Below, piece after piece: positions 51,988 through 59,452 of a DNA stretch of 64,000 nucleotides. Both the position numbers and the translations under genes were made by a program. Positions within the stretch are counted from its first letter, which is position 1. Every line of letters begins with the position of its first letter. The notes below the pieces were generated by a model that worked only from the letters and a program-made list of their open reading frames with translations, did not search any database and was not told where the DNA came from. The DNA is from Escherichia coli (GTDB lineage: Bacteria; Pseudomonadota; Gammaproteobacteria; Enterobacterales; Enterobacteriaceae). The stretch lies in assembly GCF_003991155.1 (NCBI RefSeq), contig NZ_CP031293.1, one strand, 5' to 3'.

Positions 51988-54900
51988 GTGCGCCTGATTA
52001 TCACTTTTCTGATGGCCTGGTGCCTCAGTTGGGGGGCGTACGCCGCGACGGCCCCCGATAGCAAACAAATCTCACAAGAACTGGAGCAGGCAAAAGCGGC
52101 GAAACCCGCGCAACCGGAAGTCGTAGAGGCGCTCCAGTCTGCCTTAAATGCGCTTGAGGAACGAAAAGGTTCCCTTGAGCGCATCAAGCAATATCAAGAA
52201 GTCATTGATAATTATCCGAAACTCTCCGCTACTCTGCGCGCGCAATTAAACAACATGCGTGACGAGCCGCGCAGCGTGTCACCGGGAATGTCTACCGACG
52301 CGCTGAATCAGGAAATTCTCCAGGTCAGCAGCCAGTTGCTGGATAAAAGCCGTCAGGCCCAGCAAGAGCAGGAACGCGCCCGCGAGATTGCCGATTCGCT
52401 GAATCAACTGCCGCAACAGCAAACCGATGCCCGCCGTCAGTTAAATGAAATCGAGCGCCGCCTGGGGACGCTTACCGGCAATTCCCCGCTCAATCAGGCA
52501 CAAAATTTCGCGTTGCAGTCTGACTCCGCACGCCTGAAAGCGCTCGTCGATGAACTGGAACTGGCGCAGCTGTCCGCCAATAACCGCCAGGAATTAGCGC
52601 GTTTACGCTCAGAGCTGGCGGAAAAAGAGAGCCAGCAACTGGATGCATATTTGCAGGCCTTACGTAATCAGTTGAACAGCCAACGTCAGCTTGAGGCGGA
52701 GCGGGCGCTGGAAAGTACCGAATTACTGGCAGAAAACAGTGCCGATTTGCCGAAAGATATCGTCGCGCAATTCAAAATTAACCGCGAACTATCGGCAGCG
52801 CTGAATCAACAGGCGCAGCGGATGGATCTCGTTGCCTCGCAACAGCGTCAGGCTGCCAGCCAGACGTTACAGGTCCGGCAGGCGTTGAATACGCTGCGTG
52901 AACAGTCGCAATGGCTGGGCTCGTCCAACCTGCTCGGCGAAGCGTTGCGGGCGCAGGTGGCACGGCTGCCGGAAATGCCAAAACCACAACAACTTGATAC
53001 CGAAATGGCGCAGTTGCGTGTGCAACGGTTACGTTATGAGGATCTGCTTAATAAACAGCCGCAGCTAAGGCAAATTCATCAGGCCGACGGTCAGCCGCTG
53101 ACCGCCGAGCAAAACCGTATTCTGGAAGCACAGCTACGCACTCAGCGTGAGTTGCTGAACTCATTGTTGCAGGGTGGAGACACGCTACTGCTGGAACTGA
53201 CCAAGCTGAAAGTCTCCAACGGGCAACTGGAGGATGCGCTGAAAGAGGTGAATGAAGCGACGCACCGCTATCTGTTCTGGACCTCTGACGTGCGCCCAAT
53301 GACCATCGCCTGGCCGCTGGAAATCGCCCAGGATCTGCGTCGTCTCATTTCGCTGGACACCTTCAGTCAGTTGGGCAAAGCCAGTGTGATGATGCTGACC
53401 AGTAAAGAGACAATTTTACCGCTGTTTGGCGCGTTGATTCTGGTCGGTTGCAGTATTTACTCACGCCGCTATTTCACCCGTTTTCTTGAACGTTCGGCGG
53501 CGAAAGTCGGCAAAGTGACTCAGGATCACTTCTGGCTGACGTTACGCACTCTTTTCTGGTCGATTCTCGTCGCGTCACCGCTACCGGTGCTGTGGATGAC
53601 GCTGGGTTACGGCTTGCGCGAGGCGTGGCCTTATCCGCTGGCGGTAGCGATTGGTGATGGCGTAACAGCCACCGTACCGCTGCTATGGGTAGTGATGATT
53701 TGCGCTACCTTTGCCCGCCCGAACGGCTTATTTATCGCTCATTTTGGCTGGCCGCGCGAACGGGTTTCCCGTGGGATGCGCTACTACCTGATGAGCATTG
53801 GGCTTATCGTGCCGCTGATTATGGCGCTGATGATGTTCGATAATCTCGACGACCGCGAGTTTTCCGGTTCGCTGGGACGGCTTTGCTTTATCCTCATTTG
53901 CGGTGCGCTGGCGGTGGTCACTCTCAGTCTGAAAAAGGCCGGGATCCCGCTGTATCTCAACAAAGAAGGCAGCGGTGACAACATTACCAACCATATGCTG
54001 TGGAACATGATGATTGGCGCACCGCTGGTTGCCATTCTGGCGTCGGCGGTGGGTTATCTGGCAACGGCGCAGGCACTGTTAGCGAGGCTTGAAACCTCGG
54101 TTGCCATCTGGTTCCTGCTACTAGTGGTTTATCACGTTATCCGCCGCTGGATGCTGATCCAGCGCCGCAGGCTGGCGTTTGACCGGGCGAAGCATCGCCG
54201 GGCAGAGATGTTAGCGCAACGTGCGCGTGGCGAAGAGGAAGCGCATCATCACAGTAGCCCGGAAGGGGCAATTGAAGTAGATGAAAGCGAAGTCGATCTC
54301 GATGCCATCAGTGCGCAATCCTTGCGGCTGGTGCGCTCAATTTTGATGTTGATCGCCCTGCTTTCGGTCATTGTGCTGTGGTCAGAAATCCATTCCGCTT
54401 TCGGCTTCCTCGAAAATATTTCGCTGTGGGATGTCACCTCCACGGTACAGGGCGTAGAAAGTCTGGAGCCGATTACCCTCGGTGCGGTGCTGATTGCCAT
54501 TCTGGTGTTTATCATCACCACGCAGCTGGTGCGCAACCTGCCCGCGCTGCTGGAACTGGCGATTTTGCAGCACCTGGATTTAACGCCGGGTACGGGCTAC
54601 GCCATCACCACCATCACCAAATATCTGCTGATGCTGATTGGCGGGCTGGTCGGCTTCTCAATGATTGGTATTGAGTGGTCGAAATTGCAGTGGCTGGTCG
54701 CCGCGCTCGGTGTTGGTCTCGGTTTTGGTTTGCAGGAAATTTTCGCCAACTTTATCTCTGGCCTGATCATCCTGTTCGAAAAACCGATTCGCATTGGCGA
54801 TACGGTAACGATCCGCGATCTTACTGGTAGCGTGACGAAAATTAACACCCGCGCCACCACCATCAGCGACTGGGACCGTAAAGAGATAATCGTGCCGAAC

Positions 54901-55311
54901 AAGGCGTTTATTACCGAGCAGTTTATCAACTGGTCGCTCTCTGACTCGGTCACGCGCGTGGTGTTGACGATTCCGGCCCCTGCCGATGCCAACAGTGAAG
55001 AAGTGACGGAAATCCTGCTCACCGCAGCGCGTCGCTGCTCGCTGGTGATCGACAACCCGGCACCGGAAGTCTTCCTGGTGGATCTGCAACAGGGGATTCA
55101 GATTTTCGAGCTGCGTATTTACGCCGCTGAGATGGGTCACCGTATGCCGCTACGCCATGAGATCCACCAGCTAATTCTGGCAGGCTTCCATGCCCACGGT
55201 ATCGATATGCCATTCCCGCCCTTCCAGATGCGTCTGGAAAGCCTCAACGGTAAACAAACGGGGAGAACGCTGACGTCTGCGGGCAAAGGTCGTCAGGCGG
55301 GAAGTTTATAA
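51988..55311 (+). CDS. mscM: Miniconductance mechanosensitive channel MscM (YjeP; MscS family with large periplasmic coiled-coil domain)
   Basis: 1107-aa ORF; signal peptide, Gln-rich coiled-coil N-terminal domain, multiple TM segments and C-terminal MscS domain. Confidence 0.9.
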   Translation: MRLIITFLMAWCLSWGAYAATAPDSKQISQELEQAKAAKPAQPEVVEALQSALNALEERKGSLERIKQYQEVIDNYPKLSATLRAQLNNMRDEPRSVSPGMSTDALNQEILQVSSQLLDKSRQAQQEQERAREIADSLNQLPQQQTDARRQLNEIERRLGTLTGNSPLNQAQNFALQSDSARLKALVDELELAQLSANNRQELARLRSELAEKESQQLDAYLQALRNQLNSQRQLEAERALESTELLAENSADLPKDIVAQFKINRELSAALNQQAQRMDLVASQQRQAASQTLQVRQALNTLREQSQWLGSSNLLGEALRAQVARLPEMPKPQQLDTEMAQLRVQRLRYEDLLNKQPQLRQIHQADGQPLTAEQNRILEAQLRTQRELLNSLLQGGDTLLLELTKLKVSNGQLEDALKEVNEATHRYLFWTSDVRPMTIAWPLEIAQDLRRLISLDTFSQLGKASVMMLTSKETILPLFGALILVGCSIYSRRYFTRFLERSAAKVGKVTQDHFWLTLRTLFWSILVASPLPVLWMTLGYGLREAWPYPLAVAIGDGVTATVPLLWVVMICATFARPNGLFIAHFGWPRERVSRGMRYYLMSIGLIVPLIMALMMFDNLDDREFSGSLGRLCFILICGALAVVTLSLKKAGIPLYLNKEGSGDNITNHMLWNMMIGAPLVAILASAVGYLATAQALLARLETSVAIWFLLLVVYHVIRRWMLIQRRRLAFDRAKHRRAEMLAQRARGEEEAHHHSSPEGAIEVDESEVDLDAISAQSLRLVRSILMLIALLSVIVLWSEIHSAFGFLENISLWDVTSTVQGVESLEPITLGAVLIAILVFIITTQLVRNLPALLELAILQHLDLTPGTGYAITTITKYLLMLIGGLVGFSMIGIEWSKLQWLVAALGVGLGFGLQEIFANFISGLIILFEKPIRIGDTVTIRDLTGSVTKINTRATTISDWDRKEIIVPNKAFITEQFINWSLSDSVTRVVLTIPAPADANSEEVTEILLTAARRCSLVIDNPAPEVFLVDLQQGIQIFELRIYAAEMGHRMPLRHEIHQLILAGFHAHGIDMPFPPFQMRLESLNGKQTGRTLTSAGKGRQAGSL

Positions 55312-55660
55312 GGTTTTGTAGCCGGATAGTCTCATCCGGCTCACCAACAAAACAGATAGCGCAGGGAAAACTGCCACAGCCAATAGAAGAGCATTATTGA
55401 AATAACAAAATATTGCCAAAGAGAGTGCTGTTTCTTCCAAATAACAGCATAAATATATGGGATGAATAATGGTAAGGTCATTATAATACCAACTGGGCGA
55501 ATATCATCATTCTCAAGATATGTCATAACATCACAAACATTATTAATTCCTCTACCGTCGATAAACCACTCTTTGTCTTGAACAGATAAAAAATCTATCC
55601 AAAATATGCTTATAACAAACCAGATAAGGTTAAGGGAAAATGATTTCCAGTTCATCATAG
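55240..55660. repeat. Segmental duplication copy A (mscM 3' end + terminator hairpin + yjeO)
   Basis: DNA-level similarity to 57440..57852 read directly (e.g. acggtaaacaaacggggagaacgctgacgtctgcggg versus acggtaagcaaacggggtgaacgctgacctctgcggc; shared aaggttttgtagc.ggat.gtctcatccggc hairpin). Boundaries approximate. Confidence 0.6.
55341..55658 (-). CDS. yjeO: Small inner membrane protein, YjeN/YjeO paralog family (copy adjacent to mscM)
   Basis: 105-aa ORF with 2-3 TM segments; paralogous to the ORF at 57538..57852 (conserved DKEW, YLENDD, IMTLPLF, YWLWQF, LRY.FC blocks); start overlaps the upstream 237-aa gene (ATGA). yjeO versus yjeN assignment is from K-12 gene order (memory). Confidence 0.7.
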   Translation of the reverse strand: MMNWKSFSLNLIWFVISIFWIDFLSVQDKEWFIDGRGINNVCDVMTYLENDDIRPVGIIMTLPLFIPYIYAVIWKKQHSLWQYFVISIMLFYWLWQFSLRYLFCW

Positions 55661-56368
55661 ATTATTCATTATTTTCATTAAAGCAGTTTTCTTTTCAAGA
55701 ATACGTCGACCATATTCACTGTATTCTCTCTGATGGGATCCTTTCGGTGCTGCAATGGAGTCTATAATATCTTGTTTATTTCTTTCAATACCACGGTTGT
55801 ATCGGGAGCCGACTACAATTAACTGCTCATCCGTTAAATTAGTGGTGTCACCTATTTCCGGATAGTCATAATGTATAAGGTCTCGTAAATGAAATGCTAC
55901 CACTCTAATGTTGAAGCGGTCATTTAGTAAGCACTGGGAAAGTTGGAACTGCTCAAAGGATGACAAAAGATCTGGATGTATCCCTATAGTCCTGGCTGCA
56001 ACGCCTAACTGTATTGCGACAGAACCGACTGAAGTAGAGTTTGAGTAGGTATTGCCTCCTCTCTTTGAAACGGCCTCTAGGATTATTTTTAATTGCAGCA
56101 CCCCCACTGGTTTAAATCTTTCTGGCATTCCGCCAACCTCAGCAGCCGCAACGCCCGCAAGTAATAATAACGGGATTTGCGCCTCTTTGGCATATTGCCA
56201 CAACATATCACGGTGATAAATCAACCATGATGTTTTATATAACCATAAGTGTGCAGTCCCCGTGCTGAATGTCCAATTAGTCGGAAGAAAACGCCATCGA
56301 AAATAATCAATGCCATTCCATTTAGGAAAGCCTAATTCATCAACTTCGCAAAAAATAAGATTATTCAT
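55655..56368 (-). CDS. Hypothetical protein, 237 aa, tentative lysozyme-like (GH23/SLT-like) motifs; no signal peptide
   Basis: Intact ORF with AT-rich composition; ordered motifs AAAEVGG ... GSVAIQLG ... NIRVVAFHL ... VGSRYNRG resemble the E-S / G-L-M-Q / A-Y-N-x-G blocks of lytic transglycosylases (manual inspection only); translationally coupled to yjeO. Confidence 0.55.
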   Translation of the reverse strand: MNNLIFCEVDELGFPKWNGIDYFRWRFLPTNWTFSTGTAHLWLYKTSWLIYHRDMLWQYAKEAQIPLLLLAGVAAAEVGGMPERFKPVGVLQLKIILEAVSKRGGNTYSNSTSVGSVAIQLGVAARTIGIHPDLLSSFEQFQLSQCLLNDRFNIRVVAFHLRDLIHYDYPEIGDTTNLTDEQLIVVGSRYNRGIERNKQDIIDSIAAPKGSHQREYSEYGRRILEKKTALMKIMNNL

Positions 56369-56510
56369 TTAAAGTCCCTTATTAAAATCATTCCCAGAAT
56401 GAAGAATAGTACTATCATCAGAAAAACTGATTTGTGATGGGACAGACAAAAAATATAAAAAAGGGTTCGACTTAAGATAATCAAGATAAAACATATATAC
56501 CCAATAAACC

Positions 56511-56939
56511 TCAAGATGCGGGTGTGAGCACCTGAAAGTGATCGTTAATTCGGGATGTCAGAGAGTCCGCTATATCCGGCAGCGTCTGGTTAAAAAAGAC
56601 AGAAAAACGGGATACATTATATTCATGAATGGTTTTATATTCGCAGATTAGCGGTGACGTCAGTGCTTTCAGATTCAGCGCCCCCATGATATTCAGGCGT
56701 GTGCGGCAGCCTGTTGTTTTTACTGCTTTTTTCTGGCCTTTACGTATCCAGCCATAGCTGATTTTAGTGGCCTGAGTCGGATGGACTCCATCAATAAAAA
56801 GAACCGGTTCATCACCCACAGTTATTTTCAGTTCCTCATAATATTCAATGAATTGCCTTTGTTTCTCTTCACTGAATTTATGGGGGACGCCTGACGGTTT
56901 TTTGTAGGTGAAACCATTACGATGCAGCCACTTATTCAT
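56511..56939 (-). pseudogene. IS630-family transposase fragment (C-terminal part)
   Basis: 142-aa ORF MNKWLHRNGFTYKKPSGVPHKFSEEKQRQFIEYYEEL, separated by a frameshift or gap from the N-terminal fragment. Confidence 0.6.
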
Positions 56940-57031
56940 CCCCGGAATGCTGAAAATGATGTTCCATGTCCGGGTGATAAACGCAATAACATCGCGGGTA
57001 TGGTGAAATAAATTATCGGATAACTGGCTGA

Positions 57032-57328
57032 TTAAAAGGCCGTTTGTTCAGCACTGAGTTTGCTGTCTGAGCCGCCGTTTTCGGGCTTCAGTTTTCCTTT
57101 ATTCAGGAATTCGCTGATATGGTGATCAATCGTTGTCTGATGCAAGCGTAAAGCCTGAGCAATCATGGCAGAACTCCAGCCTTCGGAAACCAGAAGAATG
57201 GCTTTAATACGATCTCTGACTCGCCCGTCACGACTGGAATCATGAAGGCGTTCAAGTTCAGCTTTTTGTTGCTCAGTAATGAATATTTTCATGTTGGACA
57301 GCATGATCTTCTGTTGCTGAAAAATCAA
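57032..57328 (-). pseudogene. IS630-family transposase fragment (N-terminal HTH part)
   Basis: 98-aa ORF with HTH region; no contiguous reading frame with the downstream fragment. Confidence 0.6.
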
Positions 57329-57439
57329 GCATCTTCAATGATCACGGGTATATAAGGTGAATATTTATTGTTTTTAATATAAAAATCGCTTGCCCAACTT
57401 ACAGAGTGACTGCAAGCTGGATAATATACTCGTCATACT

Positions 57440-57852
57440 TCAGAACGGTAAGCAAACGGGGTGAACGCTGACCTCTGCGGCTAAAGCGCGCCAGGACGGC
57501 GGTATATAAGGTTTTGTAGCAGGATGGTCTCATCCGGCTACAAACAAAACTGATAGCGCAGAAAAAACTGCCACAGCCAGTAGCCGAAAATCACAAGCGC
57601 GGTGGCATACATAAACCAGCCGCGTTTTTTTCGCCACAAAGCGAACCAGAGAAAAGGGAAAAAGAGCGGTAACGTCATTATCACACCGACATCGCGGGTA
57701 TCATCATTTTCCAGATACTCCAGCACATGGCAGATATTTTTAACCCCACCTTCATCAATCATCCACTCTTTGTCCAGCGTGGAAGTGATGACTATCTAGG
57801 GGATCGCTACAACAAACCAGATGCAGCATAAGACAAACGTGCGCGCACTCAT
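57440..57852. repeat. Segmental duplication copy B (fossil of mscM 3' end + hairpin + yjeN)
   Basis: See copy A; copy B carries about 60 bp homologous to the last codons of mscM although no mscM gene is adjacent. Boundaries approximate. Confidence 0.6.
57538..57852 (-). pseudogene. yjeN: YjeN/YjeO-family small membrane protein with in-frame TAG at codon 19 (possible pseudogene or 74-aa N-truncated product)
   Basis: Reading from ATG at 57852 gives MSARTFVLCCIWFVVAIP-stop(TAG, 57796..57798)-IVITSTLDKEWMIDEGG...; the stop aligns with a Trp in the paralog at 55341..55658; ORF track reports only the 74-aa downstream frame 57538..57762. Confidence 0.5.
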
Positions 57853-57949
57853 AAGATAACCCGTAGTTTAATTTCGCTATAGCGCATACGAAATCCCACT
57901 AATTCCCTGTCATTGCGCCCTATCGTCAGGCAGACGATAGGGCATCGGG

Positions 57950-59452
57950 TTATTCCACCGCCCACTGCGGATTTTTTGCCACTCTGCTGCAATAGTTCTG
58001 GTAAATCGCCATCGCTAACAGCGAGAAGAAGACAGGGCCGCCAATCATCCACAATGTGCTGTCCCAGTCTCCGGCTTCAACCACAGGTTGAAAGATGGTG
58101 AAGACGTTCGCAAATGTCACAACCAGTACGACAACCACCGTCGCAATCATTGCCGACATACGCGTTTTGAAAATCACAAACGGTCTGTCGAGATCCTGAC
58201 GTGCTTTAAAGAATGGGAAAGCCAGCGCGAGGAACAAGTAAGGAAGCGTCATAGACACGTTCGCCATCAGAGTCAGTTTGTTAAAGAACGCCGATGCGGT
58301 GCCACCGCCAAACGAAACCAGCAGGATGAAGACAGTAACCAGCCCGCACTGCATCCACATGGCGATAGACGGCATACCCATCGTATTCAGGCGCGTCATC
58401 GGTTCCGGCCACAATGCTTTCGGCGTTCCCTGGATGATGGCTTTCAGCGGTGAATAGCAAAGCGTAAAGAACGCACCGGTATAAGCGAGGAACATCGAAA
58501 GCCCGGTAATACGCGCAAACCATACGCCCAGCGACAATGACGCTTCTGGTGACAAATGCAGTGCGTTACCCAGCGTCACCCCGAGGCTCTTCATCAGCAC
58601 ATAGGTAATATTGCCGAGGTTAACGGAACCATTACTTAATACCTGCTGCCAGTTTGTGCTGACGCCCCATAAAAATATTGCCAGCGAATAACCGATTGAA
58701 ATAACAATAGCGGCAAAAACAATACCTTTGGCAAAGTTCTTTTCTGGATTTTCCGTTTTATCGACCAGACCACCAACCGCTTCAATTCCGCCATAGGCAA
58801 AAATAGCAAATACCACAAACGATAGCATTGCCAGACCGGACTGATAACCTGGATTCGGTGATGCAAGGAAATTAATATCCTGCGCGAAATGCCCACCATT
58901 TAATAACAAAATAGTAATGCTTACTAACAGCAATACTAAATTCAGACACATTACTGCAATACCGCCCACCGCAGTAATGCGGGCAATTTTATTAATCCCC
59001 TTTGAAGCAACGACGGTGACCAGAATCATCCATGCCACTGCCAGCAGACCAACCACCTGCGTAGGCTCCAGTCCGGCAATACGCCAGTGCTGGGTCATGT
59101 CGCTACCATAGAGGAATGTTGAGAACGGTACCCAAACTTTCGCGGAGGTACTCACCATCCAGATGATATAAGAGGAAAACCACATAAACGTACCAATGAA
59201 GGCAAAACGTGGTCCGACACTATTATTCATCCATGAATAGATACCGCCTTCTTCTTTGCGATAAGCAGCGCCCATTTCAGCCATCATTAAGGCGAATGGA
59301 ATAAAGAATAACAATGCAGAAAATATATAAAAGGGAATCGCACTATAACCCATTAAGTAATAAGCCGATGGGCTATTGGCAAATCCAAATACGGAAGTAA
59401 AGATCATCAATATGAGTCCTATCAGACTCATCTTTTTTATCGTGTGAGGCAT
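57950..59452 (-). CDS. yjeM: APC-family amino acid transporter YjeM
   Basis: ORF 530 aa; start set at MPHTIKKMSLIGLILMIFTSVFGF (500 aa); polytopic membrane protein. Confidence 0.88.
   Translation of the reverse strand: MPHTIKKMSLIGLILMIFTSVFGFANSPSAYYLMGYSAIPFYIFSALLFFIPFALMMAEMGAAYRKEEGGIYSWMNNSVGPRFAFIGTFMWFSSYIIWMVSTSAKVWVPFSTFLYGSDMTQHWRIAGLEPTQVVGLLAVAWMILVTVVASKGINKIARITAVGGIAVMCLNLVLLLVSITILLLNGGHFAQDINFLASPNPGYQSGLAMLSFVVFAIFAYGGIEAVGGLVDKTENPEKNFAKGIVFAAIVISIGYSLAIFLWGVSTNWQQVLSNGSVNLGNITYVLMKSLGVTLGNALHLSPEASLSLGVWFARITGLSMFLAYTGAFFTLCYSPLKAIIQGTPKALWPEPMTRLNTMGMPSIAMWMQCGLVTVFILLVSFGGGTASAFFNKLTLMANVSMTLPYLFLALAFPFFKARQDLDRPFVIFKTRMSAMIATVVVVLVVTFANVFTIFQPVVEAGDWDSTLWMIGGPVFFSLLAMAIYQNYCSRVAKNPQWAVE

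Follow-up and report, generated by a model that had tools for sequence, protein, structure and literature searches.

We analysed the region between the convergent genes mscM and yjeM in a stretch of Escherichia coli DNA of 64,000 nucleotides (nt) (NCBI RefSeq assembly GCF_003991155.1, contig NZ_CP031293.1), which as a whole is called the window. In the window two gene cassettes lie in tandem in this region, and the arrangement probably goes back to an old illegitimate join between the end of a cassette-1 unit and the point 66 nt before the end of mscM (mscM -66). Cassette 1 consists of orf237 and a YjeO-family gene; cassette 2 consists of yjeN and yjeO, or of yjeO alone. The names yjeO' for the proximal YjeO-family gene and orf237 for the 237-amino-acid gene are labels of this analysis. 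After mscM the genes follow on the minus strand in the order yjeO', orf237, the broken transposase open reading frames (ORFs) of an IS630-family insertion sequence (IS), distal yjeO and yjeM. The finding is a real, old and ordinary rearrangement scar. The original prediction, made from the sequence alone, had interpreted the region as a small gene duplicated in tandem along with the mscM 3' end. The type of junction, end of unit to start of unit, agrees with that view, but the origin of the two small genes does not, as they belong to separate clades and their bodies are only 54% identical.

A repeat search detected two copies of a direct repeat, copy A at the end of mscM and copy B at the head of the distal unit. 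The copies match in a block of 96 nt (55246-55341 against 57444-57539, 84% identity) and in a block of 44 nt (55343-55386 against 57540-57583, 89% identity), with spacings of 2198 and 2197 nt, respectively. Local alignment of 55200-55700 with 57400-57900 scored 132, whereas 300 shuffles averaged 11.3 and did not exceed 20. Restricted to the sequence lying outside the small genes, the alignment scored 64 and the shuffles at most 14. The repeat had been predicted at this place and with similarity beyond the coding regions; it is found there, and the similarity is far above chance.

The length of about 400 bp that had been assigned to the repeat holds only in part. The divergence is not uniform along the unit. 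The mscM tails (tail A and tail B) are identical at 53 of 66 nt (80%), the hairpin spacers at 27 of 29 (93%) and the final 15 small-gene codons at 38 of 45 (84%), whereas the remaining 270 nt of the gene bodies agree at 147 positions (54%). At the third codon positions of these bodies the identity is 42%, which is near saturation, and the two small proteins are about 50% identical to each other. The closely similar part of the repeat comprises only 140 nt, and the gene bodies are homologous at the protein level only. A single duplication would not leave the unconstrained pseudo-tail so much better preserved than the adjoining coding bodies.

The stem-loops of both copies are predicted to fold stably on both strands, with energies of -18.5/-18.9 kcal/mol for copy A and -17.4/-17.5 kcal/mol for copy B (overall range -17.4 to -18.9 kcal/mol, z -4.3 to -5.1). 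A simple scan for canonical intrinsic terminators flagged neither stem-loop, and neither has a T-run. The search for known RNA families in 54800-58200 returned just two chance matches of the eukaryotic small nucleolar RNA type, both below threshold. Exact stretches common to both copies (up to about 16 nt) are confined to the hairpin stem. The hairpin loop of the composite locus, by which we mean the locus with both units (A/G/T-GTCTC; window 55324-55340 and 57522-57538), is not the canonical Escherichia loop GAACCA but is similar to its reverse complement (TGGTTC), suggesting a possible inversion of the loop inside the palindrome.

The junction itself could be read by comparison with loci that contain only cassette 1. 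These loci read ...GGATAATATATACTTTA TTACTCAG up to the breakpoint and CCGCCCACTGCGG after it, the bases after the breakpoint starting with CCGCC (yjeM end); TTACTCAG... is the yjeM end in reverse complement. In the composite, ...GGATAATATACTCGTCA TACTTCAG leads up to the breakpoint and AACGGTAAG follows it (the tail B side is also given as AACGGTAA). The junction string, CGTCATACTTCAGAACGGTAA, is identical in the window, in Escherichia sp. E13S3 (L047) and in the Logan contig L007 (SRR26188688). At most 1 nt is shared at the joint, the G before AACGG. Native cassette-1 DNA thus reaches the joint on the left, ending at about the yjeM stop codon, and mscM -66 adjoins it on the right, as a tandem duplication of a whole unit would produce.

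Tail B bears the marks of a gene end that has lost its gene. While tail A differs from the K-12 mscM tail at 1 of 66 nt, tail B differs at 14; the functional E. albertii tail has 5 of these states and tail A of the window has 1, and 8 are unique. Five of the eight unique changes fall on codon positions 1-2, including a change of AGA to TGA, which creates an in-frame stop. The encoded end would be QDGGI and stop in place of the conserved AGSL and stop. Out of 24 functional MscM tails examined from 8 genera, 23 end in GSL and one in GSV, and the candidate explanation that tail B is the functional mscM end of another species was rejected on account of its QDGGI end and internal TGA. A codon-position test of constraint on tail B was not discriminating, the 13 differences being split 3/3/7, which is not significant. 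These sequence features make tail B, in all likelihood, a decayed Escherichia-type mscM tail. The predicted non-functional copy of the mscM 3' end, next to a distal small gene that has no mscM beside it, was thereby recovered. In E. coli genomes tail B was absent outside the 44 composite ones described below.

The gap between mscM and yjeM is a variable slot, which in Escherichia and its relatives holds one of the two alternative cassettes. The flanks are the same for both cassettes, which on the mscM side also share the stem-loop and the last 15 or so codons of the small gene. Cassette 2 alone (yjeM-yjeN-yjeO-mscM) is found in K-12, E. albertii (L050), Escherichia sp. E2661 (L048) and contig L054. 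Cassette 1 alone (yjeM-orf237-yjeO'-mscM, without a second unit) is found in the Escherichia-like contigs L055-L060, including GCA_012207325.1. In the E. albertii-like background both cassettes share the hairpin and a left boundary ending in ...CCAGTAG. Among 5426 complete E. coli genomes 2153 have yjeO and yjeN, about 876 have yjeO without a full yjeN and about 2397 have neither. The combination of orf237, yjeO' and tail B occurs in only 44 of these genomes, always with at least 99% identity; if this composite is split off, the slot is a four-state polymorphism with about 832 genomes left in the class with yjeO but without full yjeN. Salmonella also has a yjeO-only allele (L049).

Cassette 1 of the window has close counterparts outside Escherichia. 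The window is collinear with Citrobacter sp. Cf136 (L005) from mscM through orf237, and its 211-nt spacer (with the IS removed) aligns with the entire 212-nt orf237-yjeM spacer of Cf136. The same collinearity, from mscM through orf237 and the full spacer, exists with Salmonella houtenae (L051) and with L055-L060. The cassettes of Cf136 and S. houtenae are 98.3% identical while the adjoining mscM is 81.9% identical, which points to a recent transfer between genera, presumably by recombination in the conserved flanks. Escherichia cassettes are 88-91.5% identical to those of Cf136 and S. houtenae, with flanks at 82-84%. As the identity of the cassette exceeds that of the flanks across genera, the cassette must have crossed genus lines, in either direction. 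The view that a recent import of cassette 1 out of Citrobacter explains everything was considered and is weakened, because Escherichia-like genomes with cassette 1 only exist and their cassette has diverged like the flanks (93% against 92%): the cassette of L056 is 92-93% identical to that of the window, and its mscM has diverged to a similar degree (91.7%).

A neighbour-joining tree of 32 YjeO-family proteins (about 104 residues, 200 bootstraps) separated the two small genes of the window. Escherichia yjeO' groups with the Cf136 gene (100% bootstrap, 81% amino acid identity) within a Citrobacter/Trabulsiella clade (92%). All Escherichia yjeO form a clade of their own with 100% bootstrap, and the distal copy of the window falls there. 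Because the two small genes are placed in separate clades with 100% support, they are old alternative alleles and not products of the junction event.

The distal gene had been predicted to be yjeN, which did not prove right. Its protein is 86% identical to K-12 YjeO and 90% to that of Escherichia sp. E2661, and with the internal TAG read as tryptophan it matches the Pfam family DUF2645 (PF10840) over model positions 1-98 of 98 (E value 6e-39); yjeO' matches the same family over positions 3-98 of 98 (E value 5e-29). K-12 YjeN (MDDTSRDP...) belongs to no Pfam family and has no sequence relation to YjeO or to the distal gene; the idea that YjeN is a degenerate relative of orf237 was rejected because no similarity was found. 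In K-12, yjeO adjoins mscM, and yjeN lies upstream of yjeO with a 4-nt overlap. Positions 57444-57893 of the window align with 647-1096 of the K-12 locus (L001), and the alignment resumes from 57902 of the window at 1370 of K-12, leaving a yjeN stub of only about 41 nt. The deletion state is the same as in loci of the E. coli Nord1 type, with which 57443-58600 of the window is collinear from exactly 66 nt before the mscM stop (93.3% identity). By these alignments the distal gene is the ortholog of K-12 yjeO, and it is a pseudogene in the window. It carries an in-frame TAG on the minus strand where K-12 has TGG (codon 19, Table 1), and RefSeq calls a YjeO family protein just for the downstream ORF of 74 amino acids. 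In E13S3 distal yjeO is intact. At residues 33-50, YjeO of K-12 and Nord1 reads IDGRGINNVCDV, exactly as the cassette-1 protein does, while the distal copy of the window, E13S3 and E2661 have IDEGGVKNIC(D/H)V and E. albertii has IEERGVKNICDV; the K-12 type may be a gene-conversion patch out of cassette 1.

The gene orf237 had been regarded as an orphan inserted between the two copies. It is instead a conserved partner of yjeO' and belongs to the repeated unit. We found 110 homologs in Enterobacterales, and a scan of 100,044 species-representative genomes yielded 37 orf237 loci. A YjeO-family gene follows orf237 directly in 36 of them, the exception being a 44-residue fragment. The pair abuts mscM in 12 of these loci and in the two Citrobacter contigs (Cf136 and MNAZ1397). 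It is situated between yjeM and mscM in Citrobacter, Trabulsiella, Kosakonia, Enterobacter, S. houtenae and some Escherichia, and the module is also present in Xenorhabdus, Yersinia and Pectobacterium. The gene order in Citrobacter sp. Cf136 and sp. MNAZ1397 is epmA-(yjeM)-orf237-DUF2645, convergent with mscM-psd. The module is always more AT-rich than its surroundings, with 33-42% GC (38% for the pair in the window).

These comparisons bear directly on the paralog origin of the small genes. It had been proposed that an in-situ tandem duplication of mscM tail, hairpin and small gene made the two paralogs, and that the 237-amino-acid gene and IS630 were inserted later. A direct repeat with a copy of the mscM tail does exist and IS630 is indeed secondary. 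Nevertheless, this scenario is very improbable in view of the nearly saturated third positions beside an 80% identical unconstrained tail, of the placement of the proximal gene with Cf136 and of the distal gene with Escherichia yjeO, of the partnership of orf237 with the proximal gene at the same locus in other genera and in cassette-1-only Escherichia, and of the orf237 spacer being unbroken up to the junction. Proteins that are 50% identical, and cassettes that each also occur alone elsewhere, do not fit a pair of genes born in this duplication.

The IS gives part of the age order of the events. The IS630 remnant is 98% identical to ISEc40 copies and lies in two pieces; RefSeq notes an 'IS630 family transposase, frameshifted'. 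Its ends are ambiguous by 6 nt owing to the flanking TATATA, and the exact TA duplication is therefore not resolvable. In L007 the site is empty and reads GATAAAACATATATAAGGTGAATATT across it. Because L007 has the same junction together with the uninterrupted site, the IS630 insertion is younger than the junction, as had been predicted. The cassette of L007 is 93.3% identical to that of the window, and since the junction is common to cassettes that differ by 6.7%, the junction is old. In E. coli ECOD1 (L004, 1056-2546) the composite carries a further insertion, an IS1 that splits orf237, which shows that decay of the cassette is continuing in this E. coli lineage.

E13S3 contains the complete composite, including the IS remnant. 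Between the window and E13S3, 55387-57509 has 16 mismatches in 2123 nt (0.75%) as compared to 7.6% outside (Fisher p 2e-42). Accordingly, the inner 2.1 kb are 99.2% identical and the flanks 91-94%, and the edges of the low-divergence block coincide with the edges of the repeat. The identity of the window to both Cf136 and E13S3 shifts sharply at 55386/55387, falling from 91% to 67% in the case of Cf136. This low divergence indicates that Escherichia lineages have recently exchanged the inner block by recombination.

It could also be that the repeat is both product and vehicle of a Campbell-type mobility. Recombination of the 140-nt repeats would excise a circle containing cassette 1, the IS and one repeat, and the circle would re-integrate by a single crossover into the tail-hairpin region of a cassette 2 locus. 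The limits of the block that is 99.2% identical between E. coli and E13S3 do coincide with the edges of the repeat (the last mismatch on the left is at 55371, the first on the right at 57521); tail B travels with the cassette at 100% identity, and copy A of E13S3 is wholly of the resident type up to the cassette boundary. The mismatch pattern of copies A and B, however, is incompatible with one integration through one crossover point, and a double crossover within a pre-existing composite explains the pattern equally well. Neither a circle nor a transfer vehicle was seen, and the first origin of the junction would be left unexplained. We consider this movement improbable.

Direct repeats that include a gene 3' end and flank an AT-rich segment of 2.2 kb are also reminiscent of a site-specific integrative island that targets the mscM 3' end and supplies a replacement gene end, the repeats being attL and attR. 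This is hardly credible here: the ORFs in 55312-57443 are yjeO', orf237 and the broken IS630 transposase, with no integrase or recombinase among them; the repeats are 80-93% identical without an exact core; and the genes of such an island are native to this locus in other genera.

From this evidence we favour an illegitimate join in one old Escherichia lineage between the end of a cassette-1 unit, at most about 8 nt from the yjeM stop codon, and mscM -66. The product would have the structure of a tandem duplication with the unit extending from mscM(-66) to the yjeM stop, cassette 1 being proximal and cassette 2 distal. The mscM tail heading the distal unit would have lost its gene and decayed, acquiring the TGA codon and an altered C-terminus, while the stem-loop of copy B still closes distal yjeO. 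Later, most of yjeN was lost, IS630 was inserted upstream of orf237 and decayed, distal yjeO acquired its nonsense mutation and the inner block spread among Escherichia lineages by recombination.

The anatomy, the junction, the occurrence of each cassette by itself, the age order and the lateral spread are shown by the comparisons above, whereas the route by which the join was made is inferred; we considered two. First, incoming cassette-1 DNA could have been joined directly to a cassette-2 chromosome by one-sided homologous recombination with a crossover in mscM and illegitimate recombination at the other end. Second, the cassette-1 unit could have been duplicated as the same allele, and the distal interior could then have been replaced by cassette-2 DNA through homologous recombination, with crossovers in the distal tail, hairpin or last codons and in yjeM. 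This second course is possible, but we regard it as rather unlikely. It would account for a junction that runs exactly from unit end to unit start and for the presence of the rare GTCTCA-loop hairpin in both copies of the window; this hairpin, which is restricted to composite loci, is found in copy A of the window and of L007 and otherwise only in copy B. Both cassettes circulate in Escherichia within shared flanks, and the swap would need only standard recombination. On the other hand, no genome with two cassette-1 units was present among the 5426 E. coli genomes or the loci fetched, gene conversion between the copies could produce the shared hairpin as well, and in E13S3 the hairpin of copy A is the canonical Escherichia one. 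The shared rare hairpin leans toward the same-allele route or gene conversion; the absence of a locus with two cassette-1 units and a scar in Enterobacter sp. ENT03 lean toward the direct join. In the latter strain (L018, 2940-3321) 382 nt of the epmA 3' end occur a second time between yjeM and orf237. The fragment is 94.2% identical to the full gene 1.8 kb upstream, and the sequence downstream of it matches loci without yjeM. It parallels the mscM scar as a displaced gene end, but at the opposite edge of the slot.

Several points weigh against the join as we describe it. The available data do not separate the two routes, and the GTCTCA-loop hairpin in both copies of the window fits a duplication or gene conversion on the same chromosome better than a join of unrelated alleles. 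A genome with two identical units was not found. The last 8 nt before the junction match the yjeM end weakly (about 7 of 8, with one indel), so the breakpoint there is uncertain. L007 comprises just 1.3 kb and shows 33 nt of its tail B, and an exact protein look-up for a longer contig of this lineage gave none beyond the same 1.3-kb contig. The YjeO tree is built on only some 104 residues, and within the Citrobacter-like clade the branches are weakly supported (34-36%).

In homology-facilitated illegitimate recombination, incoming DNA is integrated by one homologous crossover and one joint with zero to few nt of microhomology. Displaced 'orphan' gene ends are also a feature of the region downstream of rhs/cdi loci, where incoming DNA brings its own gene 3' end together with a cassette and the resident end decays. 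The epmA 3' fragment of ENT03 is the same kind of scar. In the window the displaced piece is just 66 nt, the mechanism would follow from the scar, and a toxin/immunity function is not shown. With a tandem segmental duplication that leaves a truncated gene-end copy the window has in common the direct units, the end-to-start joint and the decaying 66-nt mscM copy that heads the second unit; it differs in that the units carry anciently diverged cassettes (orf237-yjeO' against yjeO and the yjeN stub) and are closely similar over 140 nt only. The distal unit, an ordinary E. coli allele, corresponds to the E. coli K-12 yjeN-yjeO locus (b4157-b4158) in the flank from mscM -66, the position of the hairpin and the yjeO ortholog. 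The K-12 locus lacks orf237 and a second YjeO-family gene, whereas the window has a yjeN stub, a nonsense yjeO and cassette 1 separating the unit from mscM. The loci of Citrobacter and S. enterica subsp. houtenae are alike in the gene pair, its order and overlap and the position between yjeM and mscM, and the cassette body of the window is 87-91% identical to Cf136 at the nt level. Unlike the window, these loci have another hairpin, their small gene ends differently on its 3' side (its last 46 nt are 67% identical), and they are without second unit, mscM fossil or IS. No paper on this rearrangement was found in the literature, where yjeN-yjeO appears just in a sigma-E regulon table.

Table 1. 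Features between mscM and yjeM in the window
Feature	Position	Strand	Remarks
mscM	51988..55311	+	1107 amino acids; converges on the small genes; ORF, annotated in RefSeq on identical DNA
Tail A (functional)	55246-55311	+	last 66 nt of mscM, 21 codons and stop
Repeat copy A	55246..55386		mscM tail, stem-loop at about 55313-55353 and last 15 codons of yjeO' (55341-55386)
yjeO' (proximal YjeO-family gene, cassette 1)	55341..55658	-	105 amino acids, DUF2645
orf237	55655..56368	-	237 amino acids; stop overlaps yjeO' start (ATGA); conserved partner of yjeO'
Cassette 1 intergenic region	56369..57443		about 211 nt without the IS; ends at the junction 57443/57444
IS630-family (ISEc40-like) remnant	56500..57348	-	internally deleted; transposase frame broken (ORFs of 98 and 142 amino acids)
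Tail B	57444..57509	+	probable fossil of the last 21 codons and stop of Escherichia mscM
Repeat copy B, remainder	57510..57583		stem-loop at about 57513-57545 and last 15 codons of distal yjeO
Distal yjeO, pseudogene (cassette 2)	57538..57852	-	K-12 yjeO ortholog; TAG at codon 19 (57796-57798)
yjeN stub and spacer to yjeM	57853..57949	-	about 41 nt of the yjeN 3' end, 57853-57893
yjeM	57950..59452	-	conserved right flank of the variable region; ORF and RefSeq annotation of matching DNA

The module of orf237 and the DUF2645 gene offers some hints at a function. No Pfam or NCBIfam family was found for orf237, and searches of defence-system, NCBIfam and PDB sequences with orf237, YjeO and YjeN gave no match. 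It does match phrog_11932 (E value 9e-25); a tblastn search against phage genomes gave no match, and distant homologs are present on 11 plasmids. The AlphaFold2 model is all-helical with a mean pLDDT (predicted local distance difference test) of 71. The best Foldseek matches belong without exception to Tse3, MltE or g-type lysozyme, at weak values (E value 0.27-1, template modelling score 0.3-0.45), and residue E77 is invariant in 16 homologs. A lysozyme- or transglycosylase-like fold of orf237 is thus a weak lead only. In YjeO three membrane helices can be predicted by eye from the sequence. One might speculate that the 140-nt repeat provides portable homology arms, which would let the orf237-yjeO' cassette behave as a mobile allele across Escherichia species via general recombination. 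From the strict orf237-YjeO pairing, the fold hint and the membrane helices one might further speculate that the DUF2645 proteins act together with a cell-wall hydrolase, either to control lysis or to protect the cell from it; we think this combined proposal unlikely.

The attractive story of a gene birth by duplication is wrong for this locus and is corrected here. The slot appears to evolve by the swapping of alternative cassettes through recombination in shared flanks, and an occasional concatenation leaves a gene-end fossil that can be dated. In annotation, the distal gene of this lineage is best called a yjeO pseudogene, and the proximal pair is best recorded as a conserved module of two genes. 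The pairing of orf237 with DUF2645 is so far the sole functional clue for YjeO, an E. coli protein of unknown function, and if DUF2645 proteins were indeed partners of a hydrolase, this would be the first functional lead for E. coli yjeO.

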